This document shows, one piece after another, positions 1,232 to 25,019 of a stretch of 30,722 nucleotides of DNA; position 1 is the stretch's first letter, and every line of letters starts with the position of its first letter. The position numbers and the translations under genes are program-made. The notes under the pieces were generated by a model. The model was not told the DNA's origin. It saw only the letters and a program-made list of their open reading frames with translations, and ran no database searches. Source of the DNA: a virus; UHGV virus genome UHGV-0024034; one strand, written 5' to 3'.

Positions 1232-1570
1232 TTAATTACAAAGGGCTGTAGCGGCATCAATCACCGGTGAAATTGAAATTTTAACGCCGTCATACTCAGG
1301 GTCATCCTTCCATACGTCATCTAAGTTAGACCCCTCCAGCTTTCCTGATTTAACAGCATCTACCGCCATGCCATTCAGAGGATATCTATCATCAGTTTTG
1401 ATGTCATACACAAAAGCATAAGCACGGTTAACACATGATACCTTTGCCTTTTCAAAGGTTAGAGGCCACTTGTCACCATATGCAGCGCCGTCTATCTCTT
1501 TAAACTTCTCAGCGGCTATGGCTGAGGAAGAAAGTGCAATGCAGACTATCGCAAATATAAACTTTTTCAT
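1232..1570 (-). CDS. Small secreted protein (signal peptide, two Cys), accessory gene downstream of cI
   Basis: 112 aa; N-terminus MKKFIFAIVCIALSSSAIA is a typical Sec signal peptide; GGAG Shine-Dalgarno 5 nt before the ATG, only 9 bp after the cI stop; locally AT-richer than the structural genes. Confidence 0.6.
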   Translation of the reverse strand: MKKFIFAIVCIALSSSAIAAEKFKEIDGAAYGDKWPLTFEKAKVSCVNRAYAFVYDIKTDDRYPLNGMAVDAVKSGKLEGSNLDDVWKDDPEYDGVKISISPVIDAATALCN

Positions 1571-1579
1571 TACTGCTCC

Positions 1580-2425
1580 TTAAACATGCTTTTCCAAAGT
1601 AAAAATAACCGCACCTGATGGTGTGATATCTGAAATATTACATTCAAACTCAGCAGACTTATTTGATAACCTGACCTTTCCGCCTGGCAACCTGATTACG
1701 TCAAAAACATCGAGTGCGCCATCAATACCAATAAGCCAGCGACCATTTCCTATCTTCGAGTTAGAACTATCAACAAGCCAAGATGTGCTCACACCATCAA
1801 TAAACACTAAATCATCAGTATTTGATGGAACCATAGATATATCAGGAGTCCAGCGTCCGATATCTTTGAGTTCGCCAGCCTCGAGGCGGCACTTTCTAAT
1901 CGTTAAAGCATTTGCCGGTTCACCATCATTACTGTTACGCATCTGGCCTTTTCCGGTTGATAACCATTCTAACGATACGCCAGTATCAAGGGCGCAAGTG
2001 ACAACCACGTCACCGGGGAAAAAATCGCGTCTAACCCAAGTGCTTATAGTGCCGGAAGATATACCTAATAAATCTCCAAGCTCTTTTTGCAGAGTAAAAC
2101 CATACGCATCGAGAATCCGACGCAGAACCGCCCTCCCTCCATTTGCCATGATTTCATCATAGAGTTGCTTACCTTTAAGCTTAGTTTTCACCACTTCAAA
2201 TCTTGCATTTGCAAGCTCACCATTAATTAGCCATCGCAGGTCAGCTCCAGTATCAAGAGCACACTCAACGAAAACGTTGCTAGGGATTACGTTTCTAGCA
2301 AGCCAGCTACTCACGTTGTTTGCATGTATGCCAAGCCTTTCGGCTAGTTCCTTTTGCTGCTTAAAGCCGTATGCAGAAAGGACACGTTCCAATGCGGCAG
2401 ACGCATTAACATCATTTTTAGACAT
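1580..2425 (-). CDS. cI: CI-type immunity repressor (186 CI-like) with tandemly duplicated N-terminal HTH domain
   Basis: Two internal repeats (..VLSAYGFKQQKELAERLGIHANNVSSWLARNVIPSNVFVECALDTGADLRWL.. and ..ILDAYGFTLQKELGDLLGISSGTISTWVRRDFFPGDVVVTCALDTGVSLEWL..) resembling the 186 CI HTH domain, plus a C-terminal domain. Start taken at Met-64 of the ORF-track frame, because the upstream part of the ORF runs through the promoter region. Confidence 0.8.
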   Translation of the reverse strand: MSKNDVNASAALERVLSAYGFKQQKELAERLGIHANNVSSWLARNVIPSNVFVECALDTGADLRWLINGELANARFEVVKTKLKGKQLYDEIMANGGRAVLRRILDAYGFTLQKELGDLLGISSGTISTWVRRDFFPGDVVVTCALDTGVSLEWLSTGKGQMRNSNDGEPANALTIRKCRLEAGELKDIGRWTPDISMVPSNTDDLVFIDGVSTSWLVDSSNSKIGNGRWLIGIDGALDVFDVIRLPGGKVRLSNKSAEFECNISDITPSGAVIFTLEKHV

Positions 2426-2446
2426 ATGACACCAACAAGAATTTTG

Positions 2447-2475
2447 TTTACAACCAAAATTTAGCGATCTATATT
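2447..2475 (+). promoter_or_regulatory. Putative rightward early (lytic) promoter pR: -35 TTTACA (2447..2452), 17-bp spacer, -10 TATATT (2470..2475)
   Basis: Sigma70-like hexamers with canonical spacing in the cI-apl switch region; CI operators and the leftward cI promoter not resolved. Confidence 0.4.
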
Positions 2476-2538
2476 GGTGCTCACCGACCAAGATGCACAC
2501 CACTGCACTACATTTCAAACAACAGGAGATAATGCGAT

Positions 2539-2910
2539 ATGTCAGATGCAAAATCAATCTCGACGCACGACTCGCAAAACTCACAAAATCAAACTGTGCT
2601 GCTAGACCCAACACAGTTTGATGCCATCGTTACCGCCATGCTGCCAGCTCTACAGACAATGATTCGCTCCGCTATGTCAGACACGATGACTGTGAAAGAC
2701 TTCGCCGCTACTCGCGGTGTTAGCGAGCGTCTGGTCTGGCAATGGCTCGATGAGGGAGTCCTTCTCAAAGCTCCGACCAAAGACTTTTCCAACAAAGAGG
2801 AAGCTGCTAAACGAAGCCGAACCCTCGTAAATGTAAAAGCATGGCGCGATAAGCTGACTCAACAAGCGATTGATTGTCGCTACATCGACCAGCGCACCGC
2901 TCTTAACTGA
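2539..2910 (+). CDS. Apl/Cox-like excisionase and transcriptional regulator
   Basis: First rightward gene after the switch region; HTH-like segment TVKDFAATRGVSERLVWQWLDEGVL; AGGAG RBS about 10 nt upstream. Longer than 186 Apl, so the true start may be an internal Met. Confidence 0.55.
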   Translation: MSDAKSISTHDSQNSQNQTVLLDPTQFDAIVTAMLPALQTMIRSAMSDTMTVKDFAATRGVSERLVWQWLDEGVLLKAPTKDFSNKEEAAKRSRTLVNVKAWRDKLTQQAIDCRYIDQRTALN

Positions 2911-7001: not shown

Positions 7002-7235
7002 ATGAGAATCAATATCACGTTGGATAAAGAGCAAAAAATTAGTCAGGCAACATTGGATGCACTTGAGGCTGAACTGTACCGCAATCTTCAACCTATTTAC
7101 CCAAAGACTGCTATCCGAATTCGCAAGGGCTCCGCTAATGGCGTTGAACTAAGCGGTTTGAAACTGGACGAAGATAAAAAACGAGTAATGGAAATCATGC
7201 AGCAGGTATGGGAGGACGATAGCTGGCTGCATTAA
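7002..7235 (+). CDS. DinI-family protein
   Basis: 77 aa, MRINITLDK...LDALEAELYRNLQ...EIMQQVWEDDSWLH; same length and pattern as E. coli DinI as I recall it (MRI.V...DAL..EL.R...I.Q..WE..D.W). Confidence 0.75.
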   Translation: MRINITLDKEQKISQATLDALEAELYRNLQPIYPKTAIRIRKGSANGVELSGLKLDEDKKRVMEIMQQVWEDDSWLH

Positions 7236-8532: not shown

Positions 8533-9537
8533 CTAATTTACATGTATGTAGAGTTCACCGTCGCCAGACCAATCGGGACACTCTAAAACAAGCCCAAACT
8601 GCTTGAATATTTCATCAATGATTATTGTTATCTCCCGAAAATCACCAAAACCTGTAATGTGCTGGTCATTAAACTTCCCATAAAGATTCTGAAAAGCAAT
8701 GCCTAATTCTGATAATTGATATCTTATCTTTGAGTTGGATAGTGTAAGGGATAGCTTTGGATCGTATTCTTTAATATTGATGTTTAGAGAATGGACATAA
8801 CCCATCGCATAAGCATAAGAGTTGATGATTAGCCTGATACGTTTTTTTACTTCAAGATACATGTCATTCAGAGAAATATTACCGTACTTATAACCCCAGA
8901 TGAGTTTTTCAATCTCGTCAGATACTTCATTTACAACAGTGTCAAGATTCTCTAAAAATAAATCGATAGTTTCTTGAGGGGCAGACCCCGAAGACATGTA
9001 ATTAGCGAGATATTCAGACCATGCACGCGTGGCTGAGATAAGAAGCGCGCTACCATACTCGTTGACTGTAAAGTTTTGGGCTAAGCATGTTAGTAAGTTT
9101 TTTTCATGTACGTGCACTAATTCATGGTGAATGCGATGGATGACTGCGAGGTATCCTTCTTCTTTCAGTTTTAAGAAGCTACCATCATTGAAAAGCTCAA
9201 CAAAAAAATCAATCGATAGCACAAGGGTATATTCTTCACATAGCCCATCATTGCCAATTTTTGTTACTAACTGCCCGACGGCTGCGCCCTGTTTGCTATT
9301 GGTAAATGAACTAGGGGATTTGTGTTGGTAAGAGGATGTTACCTTTTGAAGAGCTTCACTGAAGTTATAGGAAACAATCACGCATTTTAATTTGGAGATA
9401 TCAAGATTGAGATTTTTTGTTAAAGCTCGGATAGCTTCTAGTGTGAAATTACCGATATTATTTGCTTCTTGCTCAGTAGCGAAACCTTCGAGGGTTATTT
9501 TAAAATCAGTTTCCAAAATATTAATCTCCGCGCCCAT
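8533..9537 (-). CDS. AT-rich orphan protein with HExxH motif; candidate anti-phage or abortive-infection effector
   Basis: 334-aa ORF, markedly AT-rich by eye relative to the GC-rich flanks; HELVHVHE at residues 138..145 (nt 9126..9103); no resemblance to P2/186 core proteins that I recognise; lies between cos and portal gene Q. Confidence 0.6.
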   Translation of the reverse strand: MGAEINILETDFKITLEGFATEQEANNIGNFTLEAIRALTKNLNLDISKLKCVIVSYNFSEALQKVTSSYQHKSPSSFTNSKQGAAVGQLVTKIGNDGLCEEYTLVLSIDFFVELFNDGSFLKLKEEGYLAVIHRIHHELVHVHEKNLLTCLAQNFTVNEYGSALLISATRAWSEYLANYMSSGSAPQETIDLFLENLDTVVNEVSDEIEKLIWGYKYGNISLNDMYLEVKKRIRLIINSYAYAMGYVHSLNINIKEYDPKLSLTLSNSKIRYQLSELGIAFQNLYGKFNDQHITGFGDFREITIIIDEIFKQFGLVLECPDWSGDGELYIHVN

Positions 9538-20329: not shown

Positions 20330-20930
20330 CCGGCTATTACCCGTTGGCTCGTCGCCGCTGGAGGTTGCCGCCGCCGCTGCGTTCTCTGAGATTCAGCGCG
20401 TGCCGGTACCGCTGCGCACCCTGTGGAACTGGCGCACCTGCCCGGTAAAGCTGCTGCCGTATCTGGCGTGGGCGCTGTCGGTCGACAGGTGGGATGAGAA
20501 ATGGCCGGAGGCGACAAAGCGCAACGTCTGCGCGTCCTCGTTTTTCGTCCATCAGCACAAAGGCACCATCAGCGCATTGCGTCGGGTCGTCGAGCCGCTC
20601 GGCTTTCTGATTGAGGTGCGCGAGTGGTGGCAACTCGACGAGGAGCCAGGCACATTCCGCCTCGTTGTTGGCGTCCTCGACAGCGGCATCACTGACGAAA
20701 TGTATCAGGAGCTTGAGCGCCTGATTGAAGACGCCAAACCGGCAAGTCGCCACCTGACCGGGCTGGCTATCAGTCTGAGCTCGACCGGCGAACTGTATGT
20801 CGGCGCGGGATGCTATCACGGCGACGCGCTGACTGTTTACCCCTACACCCCCGAGGAGATTGTCGTCGGCGGTGAATATTACCCGGCCTCGGCCATCCAT
20901 TTGATTGATAACCTGAGAGTGAACGCATGA
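20322..20930 (+). CDS. I: Baseplate/tail formation protein gpI
   Basis: 202 aa; position of P2 gpI. Confidence 0.8.
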
Positions 20931-21886
20931 CCGCAAAATATTTTGCCATTCTGACCAATCAGGGCGCGGCGCGGCTGGCGAACGCGGCGGCACTCGGTAC
21001 CAAACTCAACCTGACGCAGATGGCCGTCGGTGATGCGAATGGTACGTTGCCGACCCCTGACCCGGCGCAGACGAAGCTCATTAACCAGAAACGCATCGCG
21101 CCGCTGAACCTGCTGACCGTTGACCCGGCCAATACCAGTCAGATTATCGCGGAACAGATTATTCCCGAGAATGAAGGTGGTTTCTGGATCCGCGAGATTG
21201 GTCTCTATGACGATGATGGTATTCTGATTGCCGTGGCGAACTGTCCGGAGACCTACAAGCCACAACTGCAGGAGGGAAGCGGTCGCACGCAGACCATTCG
21301 CATGATTCTGGTTGTGTCGAGCACATCGGCAATCACCCTGAAAATCGACCCGGCAGTCGTGCTGGCAACGCGCCAGTATGTCGACGACAAGATTATCGAG
21401 GTGAAAGGATATGCTGATGACCTGATGAAAAAACATGTTGAGGCCGCCAATCCACACAAGCAGTACCCGTTAATCGCTAATGCTCTGAAAGAAATGGTTG
21501 ACGCGGGACTGGCCGGCGACGTTCTTAAAAACCTTGGTTTGGGAGAAGCGGCTAAAAGGAATGTAGGGACAGGGGCGAATCAGATACCTGATATGGGTAG
21601 CTTCACGCTTTCTGTTTCAGGTACTGGATATCAAAAATTACCATCTGGTTTTATTCTTCAGTGGGGCTCAATCGGCGCTCCAGGCATTGCACAGGATGTG
21701 GTAACCCATTTCCCGATTGCATTTCCGAACAGATGTCTGCGTGTTTTGGTCTCACAAGACTACACACCAGATAGCGGGGCTGTTGGTTATATTGCCTGTG
21801 CAGGTTTTAGTCCCGACCCGGTTAAATTTATATCCAGAGCCAGTACTCCAGGTCTCGGCGCTTCATTTTTAGCGTTAGGCTGTTAA
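20927..21886 (+). CDS. H: Tail fibre protein gpH (conserved N-terminal domain plus variable C-terminal receptor-binding part)
   Basis: 319 aa; N-terminus [20 protein letters not shown]... is the conserved P2 H-type N-terminal domain; the C-terminal third is AT-richer; contains the hix-like crossover site. Confidence 0.85.
21522..21547 (+). promoter_or_regulatory. Invertase crossover site, left (hix/gix-like) TTCTTAAAAACC-TT-GGTTTGGGAGAA
   Basis: 26-bp site resembling my memory of hixL (TTCTTGAAAACCAAGGTTTTTGATAA); the inner half plus core is repeated in inverted orientation at 23418..23432. Confidence 0.65.
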
Positions 21887-21907
21887 TTTAGCTATATGGA
21901 ATGAGAA

Positions 21908-22348
21908 ATGAATTATATATATTCCGCGACTACAAACTCTTTCTATCCGTTAGAGATGAAAGAGGATTACACTCAAGCTGACTCATGGCCAGATGATGCT
22001 GTTGAAGTTGACGAGCAGGTGTATATTGAGTTTTCCGGATTACCGCCGAAAGGAAAAATCCGTATCGCTGGAGAAAATGGTTTTCCTGCATGGTCTGAAA
22101 TTCCACCACCAACACATGAGGAACAGATTGCTGCAGCCGAACTGGAAAAGCAGCAATTGATTAATCAGGCCAACGATTATATGAACAGTAAACAATGGCC
22201 TGGTAAAGCGGCTATTGGTCGTCTGAAAGGTGAGGAACTGGCGCAATATAATTTGTGGCTGGATTATCTGGACGCACTGGAACTGGTCGATACTTCCGGT
22301 GCGCCAGATATTGAATGGCCTACGCCTCCGGCAGTTCAGGCCAGATGA
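21908..22348 (+). CDS. G: Tail fibre assembly chaperone gpG (Tfa)
   Basis: 146 aa; sits where the fibre assembly chaperone lies in P2; C-terminus ...WPTPPAVQA resembles that of the inverted partner. Confidence 0.8.
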   Translation: MNYIYSATTNSFYPLEMKEDYTQADSWPDDAVEVDEQVYIEFSGLPPKGKIRIAGENGFPAWSEIPPPTHEEQIAAAELEKQQLINQANDYMNSKQWPGKAAIGRLKGEELAQYNLWLDYLDALELVDTSGAPDIEWPTPPAVQAR

Positions 22349-22922
22349 CATCCGGCGCGGTGCTGGTATCTGTTGCCGTCACCGCGTCAATGTAATCCAG
22401 CACAGCGTTAAGGCGGGTTGTTTCTGCCTGCGTCAGTTTACGTCCGGCCTGCAATTTCAGCTGAATCAGACTGATGGAGGCCATTGCAGTATCAATCAGC
22501 GACTGGCGCTGTGCTTCTGCTGCATCTACTGCTGCGCCGTGCTGTGCCTCGGTATCCGTCACCCATTTCTCACCATCCCATTTATCGTATGGCGTTAACG
22601 GGGCGATAGTGGTTGTATTTTCAGGGTAATCACCCGGAGCTGTGATTTCTTTTGATTCTCCTGTTTCAGTGCTATATACCGTTTCACCACGGTGGTCTGG
22701 CACATATACCCATGAGTTAAAATCTGCAGAACGGCAGATTGCATAACCAGCTTTATATGAGTCAGGAGCATCTAAACAGGAGCATGCCGGAATGCCGACA
22801 CCCACAGCAAGATATTCAGTTGATGTGAAAATATATTCCCGTGTTTCACCATCATAGTTATAAACAGTAATATTTCCTGCTTGGGTGGCGATAAATTCGT
22901 TATTTAATACGGCGTAATCCAT
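22320..22922 (-). CDS. Alternative tail fibre assembly chaperone (Tfa'), inverted orientation
   Basis: 200 aa; C-terminus ...DVIWPELPEA; overlaps G tail-to-tail by 29 bp, as U/U' do in the Mu G segment. Confidence 0.75.
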   Translation of the reverse strand: MDYAVLNNEFIATQAGNITVYNYDGETREYIFTSTEYLAVGVGIPACSCLDAPDSYKAGYAICRSADFNSWVYVPDHRGETVYSTETGESKEITAPGDYPENTTTIAPLTPYDKWDGEKWVTDTEAQHGAAVDAAEAQRQSLIDTAMASISLIQLKLQAGRKLTQAETTRLNAVLDYIDAVTATDTSTAPDVIWPELPEA

Positions 22923-23430
22923 TATGCAGCCCTCACGATATACGCAAATGCCAGGTTCCGTGGTCTGGTTTCTTTAATTAAAGAGGAGGCATCAGGTGAA
23001 CTCACTGATTCAGCACCATTTCTTCCACCAGTGGTATAAGTAAAAACTCTTTCACTGTTAGACCAGTAATCCACACCAACTGTTTTTGCTGATGAAAAAA
23101 TGGTTTCATCAGATATAACCTGTTCTATTCCATACGGGATATTAGTAACTGACCCCACTTTTGTAGGTATTCCATGATTATGAGAAATTACTGCATGCTC
23201 TTGATTCGTTAATAAAGTACGACCGCTATCCACTCCACGCCCGTCATCCCAGCCACGAATAAACTCACCACGTAAATCAGGCAATTTATTTGTCGGATAA
23301 GCCTTTGCCAGTTCCGGGTATTCTTCAGCAGAAAAAGCGGCACCGTTGCATTTCAGCCAGCCTGTTGGCGGAGTGGCGGAAGGCCACGGAACAGGCACGC
23401 CAACGGGTAATGCCGAACCTTCTCCCAAAC
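22922..23430 (-). CDS. Alternative tail-fibre C-terminal cassette (Hv'), no promoter or start codon of its own
   Basis: Phage tail collar motif PTGWLKCNGAAFSAEEYPELAKAY...LPDLRGEFIRG; reading frame is continuous with the H constant region across the shared GGTTTGGGAGAAG repeat only after inversion. Confidence 0.75.
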
Positions 23431-23444
23431 CAACCTTTTAGAAA
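23419..23444 (+). promoter_or_regulatory. Invertase crossover site, right (hix-like) TTCTCCCAAACC-AA-CCTTTTAGAAAA
   Basis: Inner half-site is the exact reverse complement of the left site's inner half; outer half-site is degenerate. Confidence 0.6.
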
Positions 23445-23499
23445 ATGCAGATATTCCGTTCAGTTGGCATGATCCCGACTTTTTACCGGGTTATTTCTC

Positions 23500-23742
23500 A
23501 TGTTTATCGGTTATGTACGTGTATCAACAAATGACCAGAACACCGCATTACAGCGAAATGAACTGGAGTGCGCAGGATGCGAGCTGATTTTCGAAGATAA
23601 AATCAGCGGCAAAACATCAGACTGGCCGGGGCTAAAGAGGTTACTCAGAACCTTGTCAGAGGGCGATACGCTTGTGGTCTGGAAACTGGATCGCCTCGGG
23701 TATCTCAACGCTATACAAAAAATTTCCCGCATCCGTTGCTGA
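23500..23742 (+). pseudogene. Truncated serine DNA invertase (Hin/Gin/Pin/Cin family)
   Basis: MFIGYVRVSTNDQNTALQRN...VVWKLDRLG matches the invertase catalytic N-terminus through about residue 66, then diverges and stops at 80 aa; the C-terminal HTH domain is absent. Confidence 0.8.
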
Positions 23743-23840
23743 TGTCTCAATGTGTCAGACATCACCCAACACTGACAAATAGCCCCTCAACAGACCAGCC
23801 AGGACAATAACACTTGCCCACTAACCACGGAGTTAACCGG

Positions 23841-25019
23841 ATGAGTGATTTTCACCACGGCGTGCAGGTGCTTGAGATTAACGACGGCACCCGCGTCATT
23901 TCCACTGTTGCAACCGCAATCGTCGGCATGGTCTGTACAGCCAGCGATGCGGATGCGGCAACCTTTCCCCTCAACGAGCCGGTACTGATTACCAATGTGC
24001 AAAGCGCCATTGCGAAAGCCGGTAAAAAAGGCACGCTGGCCGCGTCCCTGCAGGCCATCGCCGACCAGTCAAAACCTGTCACAGTTGTCGTGCGTGTTGC
24101 CGAAGGTACCGGAGAAGACGCCGAAGCGCAGACCATTTCCAATATCATCGGCGGCACGGATGAGAGCGGTAAATATACCGGCATCAAGGCGCTGTTGACT
24201 GCCGAAGCAGTCACCGGCGTTAAGCCGCGCATTCTCGGCGTGCCGGGTCTCGATACCAAAGAGGTCGCAGTCGCACTTGCTTCGGTCTGTATCAGCCTGC
24301 GCGCCTTTGGCTATATCAGCGCATGGGGTTGTAAAACCATTTCCGAGGCGATGGCCTATCGCGAGAATTTCAGCCAGCGCGAGCTGATGGTCATCTGGCC
24401 TGATTTCCTTGCATGGGATACCACCACAAACGCCACCGCACCGGCATACGCAACTGCGCGCGCACTCGGCCTGCGTGCCTATATCGACCAGACCGTCGGC
24501 TGGCACAAAACCCTGTCTAACATCGGCGTGCAGGGTGTTACCGGCATCAGTGCGTCAGTGTTTTGGGATTTGCAGGCATCCGGCACCGATGCTGATCTGC
24601 TCAACGAGGCCGGGCTCACAACACTGGTGCGTAAGGATGGCTTCCGCTTTTGGGGTAACCGCACCTGCTCTGATGACCCGCTTTTCCTGTTTGAGAACTA
24701 CACCCGCACCGCGCAGGTGCTGGCCGACACGATGGCCGAGGCGCACATGTGGGCGGTCGATAAGCCCATCACCGCATCACTTATCCGTGACATTGTCGAC
24801 GGCATTAACGCCAAATTCCGCGAGCTGAAATCAAACGGCTACATCGTGGACGGTGAATGCTGGTTTGACGAGGAATCGAACGATAAGGAAACCCTCAAGG
24901 CAGGGAAACTGTATATCGACTACGACTATACACCGGTTCCACCACTGGAAAGCCTGACCCTGCGCCAGCGTATCACCGATAAATATCTGGTAAATCTGGC
25001 CGAATCGGTCAACAGCTAA
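23841..25019 (+). CDS. FI: Tail sheath protein FI
   Basis: 392 aa from MSDFHHGVQVLEINDGTRVIS...; near-collinear with P2 FI; the ORF-track start at 23814 is an overextension. Confidence 0.95.
   Translation: MSDFHHGVQVLEINDGTRVISTVATAIVGMVCTASDADAATFPLNEPVLITNVQSAIAKAGKKGTLAASLQAIADQSKPVTVVVRVAEGTGEDAEAQTISNIIGGTDESGKYTGIKALLTAEAVTGVKPRILGVPGLDTKEVAVALASVCISLRAFGYISAWGCKTISEAMAYRENFSQRELMVIWPDFLAWDTTTNATAPAYATARALGLRAYIDQTVGWHKTLSNIGVQGVTGISASVFWDLQASGTDADLLNEAGLTTLVRKDGFRFWGNRTCSDDPLFLFENYTRTAQVLADTMAEAHMWAVDKPITASLIRDIVDGINAKFRELKSNGYIVDGECWFDEESNDKETLKAGKLYIDYDYTPVPPLESLTLRQRITDKYLVNLAESVNS

Follow-up and report, generated by a model that had tools for sequence, protein, structure and literature searches.

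The DNA analysed here, the virus genome UHGV-0024034 (30,722 nucleotides [nt], referred to throughout as the window), is a P2-like (Peduoviridae) prophage of Escherichia coli in which the tail-fibre gene H runs into an invertible segment. We consider this segment to be probably an orphan tail-fibre switch of the Pin/Gin family, one whose own invertase gene has been lost by deletion and which is flipped in trans. Tail-fibre inversion switches have been textbook material since the G segment of Mu and the C segment of P1. An earlier note on this DNA had recognised a Gin/Cin/Pin-type segment governing host range, a reading that the crossover sites, the cassettes and the reading frame all support, and it had described the switch as probably locked, a view that the relatives described below do not bear out.

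Two crossover sites with the features of Gin/Hin/Cin/Pin sites bound the segment (Table 1). Both are 26 bp long, they are inverted relative to each other, and their cores match, the AA of one being the reverse complement of the TT of the other. Within the window, the 12-mer GGTTTGGGAGAA is found at two positions only, 21536-21547 on the plus strand and 23420-23431 on the minus strand, where 0.09 would be expected by chance, and the inverted repeat as a whole reaches 21 nt at 90% identity (21528-21548 / 23419-23439). The earlier note had reported the site inside H and an inverted copy of its inner half near 23418..23432; both are present, and the complete right site is now defined at 23420-23445. 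The TT/AA cores and a right outer half of the form C[G/C]TTTnnGAAAA are also found beside full-length invertases in phage pro483, in the PCN033 prophage and in an e14-like element, and because the architecture is the same there, the right site is canonical and not degenerate. The repeats are conserved in relatives, a point on which the note had made its structural call depend. Shufflons and other multi-site systems have more than two sites; no third crossover site was found in the window, and a shufflon-like arrangement was rejected for that reason. The inverted repeats of the e14 P segment have been given as TTGGTTTGGGAGAAGG and CCTTCTCCCAAACCAA (PMC12529663). The left repeat of the window (21534-21549) has 15 of 16 bases as in the published e14 repeat of this pair, and the right repeat (23418-23433) agrees with CCTTCTCCCAAACCAA at all 16.

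The segment has the layout of a tail-fibre host-range cassette switch. The constant N-terminal part of H lies outside it, and inside lie two opposed C-termini, each with its own chaperone, the two chaperone genes being convergent. The constant part is 98.9-99.6% identical across all carriers of the deletion allele described below, and divergence begins past the site; the GC content of the segment is 46.4%, compared to 54-57% in the flanks. The contents agree by Pfam with those listed in the earlier note, namely the variable C-terminus of H with its chaperone and, in reverse, a second chaperone and a second C-terminal cassette. Both ORFs (open reading frames) that are silent in the present orientation are uninterrupted and match Pfam families, and the alternative C-terminal cassette overlaps the gene for the 200-residue chaperone in a TAATG at 22922. 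Inverting the segment in silico at the cores (21534-35 / 23432-33) leaves the stretch ...KNLGLGE... in frame and yields an H protein of 372 residues, in keeping with the note's claim that the G-L-G-E frame is preserved across the crossover and that the alternative cassette is in frame. Fusions of the constant part to a tip of this second type do occur in E. coli, for example in P0028 (372 residues, 86% identity, 100% coverage), and the databases hold fused H proteins of both kinds, with Gp53-like and with Collar tips.

Table 1. Features of the tail-fibre switch and its surroundings (positions in the window)
Feature	Position	Strand	Basis or detail
H constant N-terminal part, up to the crossover	20927..21533	+	Pfam Phage_tail_fib, residues 1-150
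Left 26-bp crossover site, inside H	21522..21547	+	TTCTTAAAAACC-TT-GGTTTGGGAGAA; core TT at 21534-21535
Invertible segment, 1,900 bp core to core	21534..23433		In-frame in-silico inversion; exact reverse complements in three clonal pairs
Cassette Hv1, H C-terminus expressed in present orientation (Gp53-like_C)	21536..21886	+	Pfam PF21882, H residues 237-319
Tail-fibre assembly chaperone of Hv1, 146 residues	21908..22348	+	Pfam Caudo_TAP, E = 8e-38
Second chaperone, 200 residues, silent in present orientation	22320..22922	-	Pfam Caudo_TAP, E = 5e-33; tfaE annotation in relatives
Cassette Hv2, alternative H C-terminus (Collar domain)	22922..23431	-	Pfam Collar, on reading frame 22922-23428; lacks its own start codon upstream of the crossover
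Right 26-bp crossover site, just upstream of invertase gene	23420..23445	+	TTCTCCCAAACC-AA-CCTTTTAGAAAA; core AA at 23432-23433
Invertase remnant ORF, 80 residues	23500..23742	+	Pfam Resolvase, residues 3-67 only; codons 1-67 authentic, remainder out-of-frame read-through
Predicted Fis-bound recombinational enhancer	23520..23590		Position only, by analogy with hin
Retained 3' end of ancestral invertase gene, in another frame	23701..23783	+	Frame translation, ending ISTLYKKFPASVADVSMCQTSPNTDK*; aligns to 3' ends of PCN033 and pro483 genes
Hairpin, 8-bp stem (23740-47 / 23757-64), 9-nt loop	23740..23764	+	-11.8 kcal/mol, z = -1.9
Predicted binding region of Ogr-type activator at late promoter pF	23748..23776	+	Homology to annotation of the P2 record, by alignment
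Tail sheath gene FI	23841..25019	+	True start is the ATG at 23841, by alignment to P2 and pro483 FI starts; Pfam families on the homologue in carrier L021

A complete serine invertase has a catalytic domain with the active-site serine, an E-helix and a C-terminal helix-turn-helix (HTH) domain; of the gene adjoining the right site, only residues 1-67 are left. The earlier note, which took the invertase to be truncated at 80 residues, was right that it is defective and that the family match runs out, by Pfam at residue 67, but the gene has not been cut short at its 3' end. When the sequence from 23690 onwards is translated in the next frame, ..GISTLYKKFPAS.. appears, which is the C-terminal end conserved among Pin-family invertases (..ISTLYKKFPAS..). 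The note had proposed an alignment of the remnant to intact invertases, and we mapped the deletion junction in this way. In a split alignment to the invertase genes of PCN033 and JX21CE33 the breakpoints fall at gene positions 199-201 and 510, so that about 308-310 nt are missing from within the gene, out of frame, with the junction between 23700 and 23701 at a GGG(C) microhomology. Lost with this stretch are the remainder of the catalytic domain and the greater part of the DNA-binding domain. The remnant occurs as three sub-alleles: one with no further indel (the window, EC12), one with a 1-bp deletion (40EC, CH423) and one with a 4-bp ATCA insertion (VG888, PER07-33, 613R3). Both indels, between window positions 23610 and 23630, lie further downstream than the predicted enhancer stretch, and they show a decay of coding function such as is expected for a dead gene.

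A hairpin had been placed by the earlier note at the truncation point, with a 7-bp stem (23741..23763). What is found is an 8-bp stem that lies 40 nt downstream of the deletion junction and is not significant, 9 of 200 shuffled sequences folding equally well. Its outer base pair is gone in all four other deletion-allele loci that were aligned (A to G at 23764), and there is overlap with two other features, the former 3' end of the invertase gene and the stretch that corresponds by homology to the annotated pF activator-binding site of P2. The lack of a T-run, the z-score of -1.9, the distance from the junction and the overlap with pF led us to reject the idea that the hairpin acts as a terminator or is a scar of the deletion; it is probably incidental.

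Of 5,426 complete E. coli genomes, 35 share this exact junction and align across it in one piece at 97.5-99.7% identity, whereas the closest undeleted allele in these genomes is only 89.4% identical. We therefore trace the whole allele lineage to one ancestral deletion. A further 12 viral or metagenome contigs (6 from IMG/VR and 6 from metagenomes) have the junction, and by alignment it is present in E. coli 40EC, VG888-46E9 and PER07-33 and in phage 613R3. A search of the GTDB species representatives with the junction 29-mer gave no match, and the deletion allele was found only in E. coli genomes and in unassigned viral or metagenome contigs.

The 35 carriers show both orientations. Classed by which chaperone adjoins the remnant (from the annotation in the case of EC15 and 5283), at least 16 are oriented as in the window and 12 are opposite. 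Such differences between distant carriers were dropped as proof of inversion, their cassette content being mosaic, and the proof was drawn instead from three clonal pairs. CH423 and CH425 come from the same hospital and have chromosomes of 4,740,904 and 4,740,899 bp; their segment of 1,867 bp is flanked by 2,889 + 4,406 bp (7,295 in all) without a mismatch. The Hangzhou urine isolates EC12 and EC15 have a segment of 1,871 bp and flanks of 1,617 + 3,907 bp (5,524), again with 0 mismatches, and the Houston blood isolates 2779 and 5283 a segment of 1,544 bp with flanks of 1,944 + 3,911 bp (5,855) and 0 mismatches. In each pair the segment is the exact reverse complement of its counterpart between the core dinucleotides, and the loci are identical at every other base. 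The six loci all share the window's exact 26-bp sites and its dead invertase, and the inversions are later than the deletion. They are real, since repeats of at most 21 nt cannot produce assembly mis-orientation. The remnant of CH423 and CH425 carries a further frameshift, at codon 44, and so it is not the enzyme that flips the segment there. Precise inversion at the core dinucleotides is thus documented for the relatives. The same observations leave the earlier description of the switch as probably locked without support and bear out its proviso, that the segment would be frozen unless an invertase were supplied in trans: the sites are identical and the invertase dead, yet clonal isolates are inverted.

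Two explanations would dispense with an invertase altogether. In the first, homologous import of segments, or of the deletion allele itself, would account for the differences in orientation with no site-specific inversion after the deletion. The segments are indeed mosaic, at 70-95% identity compared to 97.5-99.7% for their flanks, and are often nearer to e14-like elements than to sister prophages. Import would add differences, however, and the clonal pairs match at every base apart from the segment between the cores, which is an exact reverse complement; moreover, no undeleted allele above 89.4% identity is at hand to serve as a recombination partner in spreading the deletion, and the boundaries of the variation coincide with the 26-bp sites. 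We judge this explanation to be very improbable. In the second, the segment would be flipped by RecA-dependent recombination between the short inverted repeats, whose identity is limited to 15 bases, with a product that cannot be told by sequence from that of an invertase. The 2779 lineage, with no PinE/Gin-type homologue detected on its chromosome, might seem to favour it, but that lineage has an additional chromosomal match to the pinR core (pinQ/R-type). The minimal efficient processing segment of RecA exceeds 15 bp, and three independent flips within shallow clonal groups, in a set of only 35 genomes, point to a rate far above that of such recombination. We give this second explanation hardly any credence, less even than the import of segments.

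The cassettes of the carriers deserve a separate description. Carrier loci L001-L022 combine near-identical flanks (97.5-99.7%) with mosaic cassettes (70-95%) that are often nearer to those of e14-like elements than to those of sister prophages. Similarity breaks off precisely at the 26-bp sites, a pattern that suggests exchange of cassettes between co-resident elements at the crossover sites. Two metagenome contigs, L017 (ERZ808028 contig, 1-2450) and L018, have the deletion remnant at the right end of the segment, and to the left of the segment they carry an inverted 5' region of an e14-type invertase gene, with the outer half-site TTTTCATAAACG, in place of the constant part of H. Either these assemblies are chimeric, joined across shared sites, or elements have really exchanged sequence at the crossover sites. 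In the 2779 / FDAARGOS_1280 / 98210 lineage (L035, L036), both cassettes of the segment are annotated as gp53-like and the chaperone genes measure 396 and 444 nt, so that the two states of the switch may differ less in receptor type than those of the window.

Enzymes that could act in trans are common. PinE, PinQ and PinR have each been shown to invert the e14 P segment, PinQ and PinR being encoded by other prophages (PMC12529663, NAR 2025), with PinR and PinE reported to be 38% identical (PMC12529663). The CH423 genome has an intact pinR of 196 residues in a Rac-like prophage, about 40% identical to Pin-type invertases; in the same genome e14 is absent at icd, and the pinH adjacent to ypjA is merely a 168-nt fragment. 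We ranked the 35 carriers with the remnant sequence, added a reverse-complemented probe, and counted the matching places per chromosome. By these counts 33 of the 35 have another candidate invertase on the chromosome, of PinE/Gin type or of PinQ/R type. In the 2779 lineage an extra pinR-core match indicates a PinQ/R-type gene, with no PinE/Gin-type homologue on the chromosome; the EC12 lineage shows the reverse, one or more chromosomal PinE/Gin-type homologues and no PinQ/R-type gene, and CH423 has both types indicated. Across the 5,426 E. coli genomes, blastn matches to pinE are found in 4,825, covering at least 80% of its length in 1,994, and the pinQ/R core is found in about half. No serine invertase was found in the first 50 kb of two plasmids, pEC15-2, which resembles a colicin/virulence plasmid (cvaC, iro, iss), and pMB9272_1, which is of IncI1 type.

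Several points weigh against flipping in trans, or against extending it to the window. The enzymes proposed to act in trans are candidates. The place counts are silent on whether a gene is intact, and they cover the chromosomes only. A second PinE/Gin-type locus that the counts imply in CH423 was not located, and no crossover-like site was found where one was looked for next to the pinR of that genome. Two of the 35 carriers, AST217 and ESBLEC_MG48, have no candidate invertase on the chromosome. Some of the differences in orientation between distant carriers could stem from imported segments, given how mosaic the cassettes are, and the assignment of the enhancer discussed below is positional only. 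Inversion was seen only in the copies of relatives, the window being represented by its prophage sequence alone, and the nearest copies of the window's segment, in L021 (99.8%) and, for the part spanning Hv1 and its chaperone, in L016 and L022, share its orientation.

Some of these points are also those that would be expected of a fossil, that is, of a segment frozen in the Gp53-like orientation in a host with no compatible invertase, its alternative cassette and chaperone being decaying relics. The invertase encoded in cis is dead, the copies nearest to the window's own segment are all oriented as it is, and two carriers lack a detectable chromosomal candidate. Nevertheless, both sites of the window are intact and identical to those of the flipped copies, the two silent ORFs are uninterrupted and match their Pfam families, and 33 of the 35 carriers, like roughly half or more of E. 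coli genomes at large, contain candidate invertases. A frozen segment is on balance unlikely, if clearly less so than either of the explanations that do without an invertase.

The reading that we prefer, an orphan switch flipped in trans, would work as follows. In this family the recombinase cleaves at the 2-bp cores and the subunits rotate by 180 degrees, which leaves the segment inverted (PMC3798978). In the window, a serine invertase would cleave at the TT and AA cores and rotate the 1,900-bp segment, exchanging the Gp53-like tip and its 146-residue Tfa for a Collar-domain tip and its 200-residue TfaE-like partner. After inversion the Collar-tipped H would be translationally coupled to the 200-residue chaperone through the TAATG overlap, and the altered tip of H would be expected to change receptor specificity. 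The lineage's own invertase was destroyed in an ancestor by the internal out-of-frame deletion of about 308-310 nt, which left the sites intact and canonical, and the switch now lacks autonomous activity yet would not be fossilised. The enzyme acting in trans would be a co-resident serine invertase, either of PinE type or the PinQ or PinR of a Qin-like or Rac-like prophage.

The 5' part of the dead gene may still have a role. A Fis enhancer within the promoter-proximal part of the invertase gene is known from gin and cin as well as from hin. In the Hin system a 65-bp Fis-bound enhancer, about 100 bp from hixL, nucleates an invertasome with invertase dimers on both sites (PMC3798978). The right core of the window lies 67 bp from the ATG of the invertase gene and 267 bp from the deletion junction; since the deletion begins only at that distance, the equivalent stretch (~23520-23590) has been retained. 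The 5' ~200 nt of the gene are retained in every carrier, which is consistent with selection for a cis element but is no proof of it. It is conceivable, and we offer it tentatively as a doubtful extension of the model, that the lineage gave up its invertase for good while keeping a working switch, with the 5' remnant kept as an enhancer and with flipping set by the cryptic-prophage invertases of the host (PinQ, PinR or PinE), enzymes that phage attack in turn induces.

The system is of a known kind in a known P2-like slot, here in an orphan state and evidently flipped in trans. The closest match is the P segment, with PinE, of the defective prophage e14 of E. coli K-12. It resembles the window in its repeats (15/16 and 16/16 bases), in the architecture of its 26-bp sites and in its set of cassettes, a Gp53-like and a Collar tip each with a Caudo_TAP chaperone, and e14-like loci are 94.9-97.9% identical in nucleotide sequence to the window's segment. 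Inversion of e14 in trans by the enzymes of other prophages is also documented (PMC12529663). The e14 segment joins a remnant of a lambdoid side tail fibre, however, and e14 keeps pinE, whereas the segment of the window joins gene H of an apparently complete P2-like myovirus and its adjacent invertase is internally deleted. The expressed Gp53-like tip of the window (21536-21886) and the C-terminus of e14 StfE2 are members of one cassette family. StfE2 produced by inversion has been reported to block adsorption of phage T2 (PMC12529663).

Among P2-like elements, Escherichia phage pro483, the PCN033 prophage and the prophages of enteropathogenic E. coli (EPEC) E2348/69 share the gene order of the window, I-H-tfa / tfa'-H' / invertase / FI, and a single segment is seen in both orientations among PCN033-type genomes. 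These relatives have full-length invertases of 192-197 residues, whereas the lineage of the window lacks codons 68 to ~170 and is out of frame after that. Phase variation by inversion has been shown experimentally for the EPEC P2-like prophages (PMC4272514), whose locus has three sites compared to the two of the window. Phage P2 itself has the same backbone and the same pF upstream of FI, but its H protein, of 669 residues, lacks a crossover site, and Z/fun, with no invertible segment, lies between G and FI.

The Mu G segment with Gin and the P1 C segment with Cin share with the window a constant N-terminus outside, two C-termini with chaperones inside, 26-bp sites with a 2-bp core, and a serine invertase gene adjoining one site. 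They belong to other phage families, differ in size (3 kb for Mu G and 4.2 kb for P1 C) and in cassette sequence, and have intact invertases; dependence on Fis and the enhancer has been demonstrated for them, whereas for the window we infer it. A prophage invertase that flips a segment located elsewhere has a precedent in Fin, from the Fels-2 prophage, which acts on the Salmonella H segment alongside Hin (cited in PMC12529663 and PMC4272514), with the difference that the H segment retains its own Hin, while the segment of the window has lost its own invertase. Beyond what was known of such systems, the analysis adds an internal deletion that is fixed in a lineage, a hairpin that proves to be apparently incidental, and a switch that, judging from the clonal pairs, is evidently still operating in trans in nature.

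The remainder of the window is in keeping with a P2-like prophage. It encodes an integrase, a 186-type CI repressor, the replication gene A, and capsid and lysis genes, and its tail genes run from V-W-J-I-H to FI-FII-E-T-U-D, with an Ogr-type activated pF, as established from ORFs, Pfam and an alignment to P2; this agrees with the order of a P2-like tail module, V-W-J-I-H-G ... FI-FII-E-T-U-D. The switch occupies the slot between the G-equivalent gene and pF/FI, which is where Z/fun sits in P2, as the earlier note had stated and the alignment to P2 supports. The late region is 95.7% identical to that of Escherichia phage vB_EcoM-613R3, with 92% of the length covered, and those close relatives for which an organism is named are E. 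coli in every case. The exact H protein of 319 residues is found in 5 public contigs, including a 30,680-bp ENA metagenome scaffold and an NCBI assembly contig, with the local gene order unchanged.

A few other genes of the window stand out. In the repressor ORF (1580-2614, minus strand) a tandem pair of Phage_CI_repr HTH domains precedes a single Phage_CI_C domain, as if the DNA-binding module of a 186-type CI had been duplicated internally. An ORF of 334 residues at 8533-9537 (minus strand) has a GC content of 37.5%, compared to a window mean of 52.7%, and has no match in Pfam or PADLOC; it is placed just upstream of the portal gene Q, at a variable cargo spot (old/tin in P2), and may be a moron or a defence gene. 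Two small cargo genes encode a DUF2511 signal-peptide protein, between int and cI (1232-1570, minus strand), and a DinI-like protein, downstream of gene A (7002-7235, plus strand).

For annotation, these results mean that a pseudogenised invertase beside an invertible segment should not be taken as the mark of a frozen switch. Orientation, and hence the predicted receptor-binding protein of the induced phage, can differ among isolates of one clone. The clonal pairs provide natural evidence, at the level of sequence, for Pin-family switches that are serviced in trans across prophages, as has been shown experimentally for PinQ and PinR acting on e14, and the lineage offers a tractable system for asking whether a 5' invertase fragment is kept as an enhancer. 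If the lineage does depend on the cryptic-prophage invertases of its hosts, the choice of tail fibre would be set by the state and the prophage content of the cell that the phage has left.

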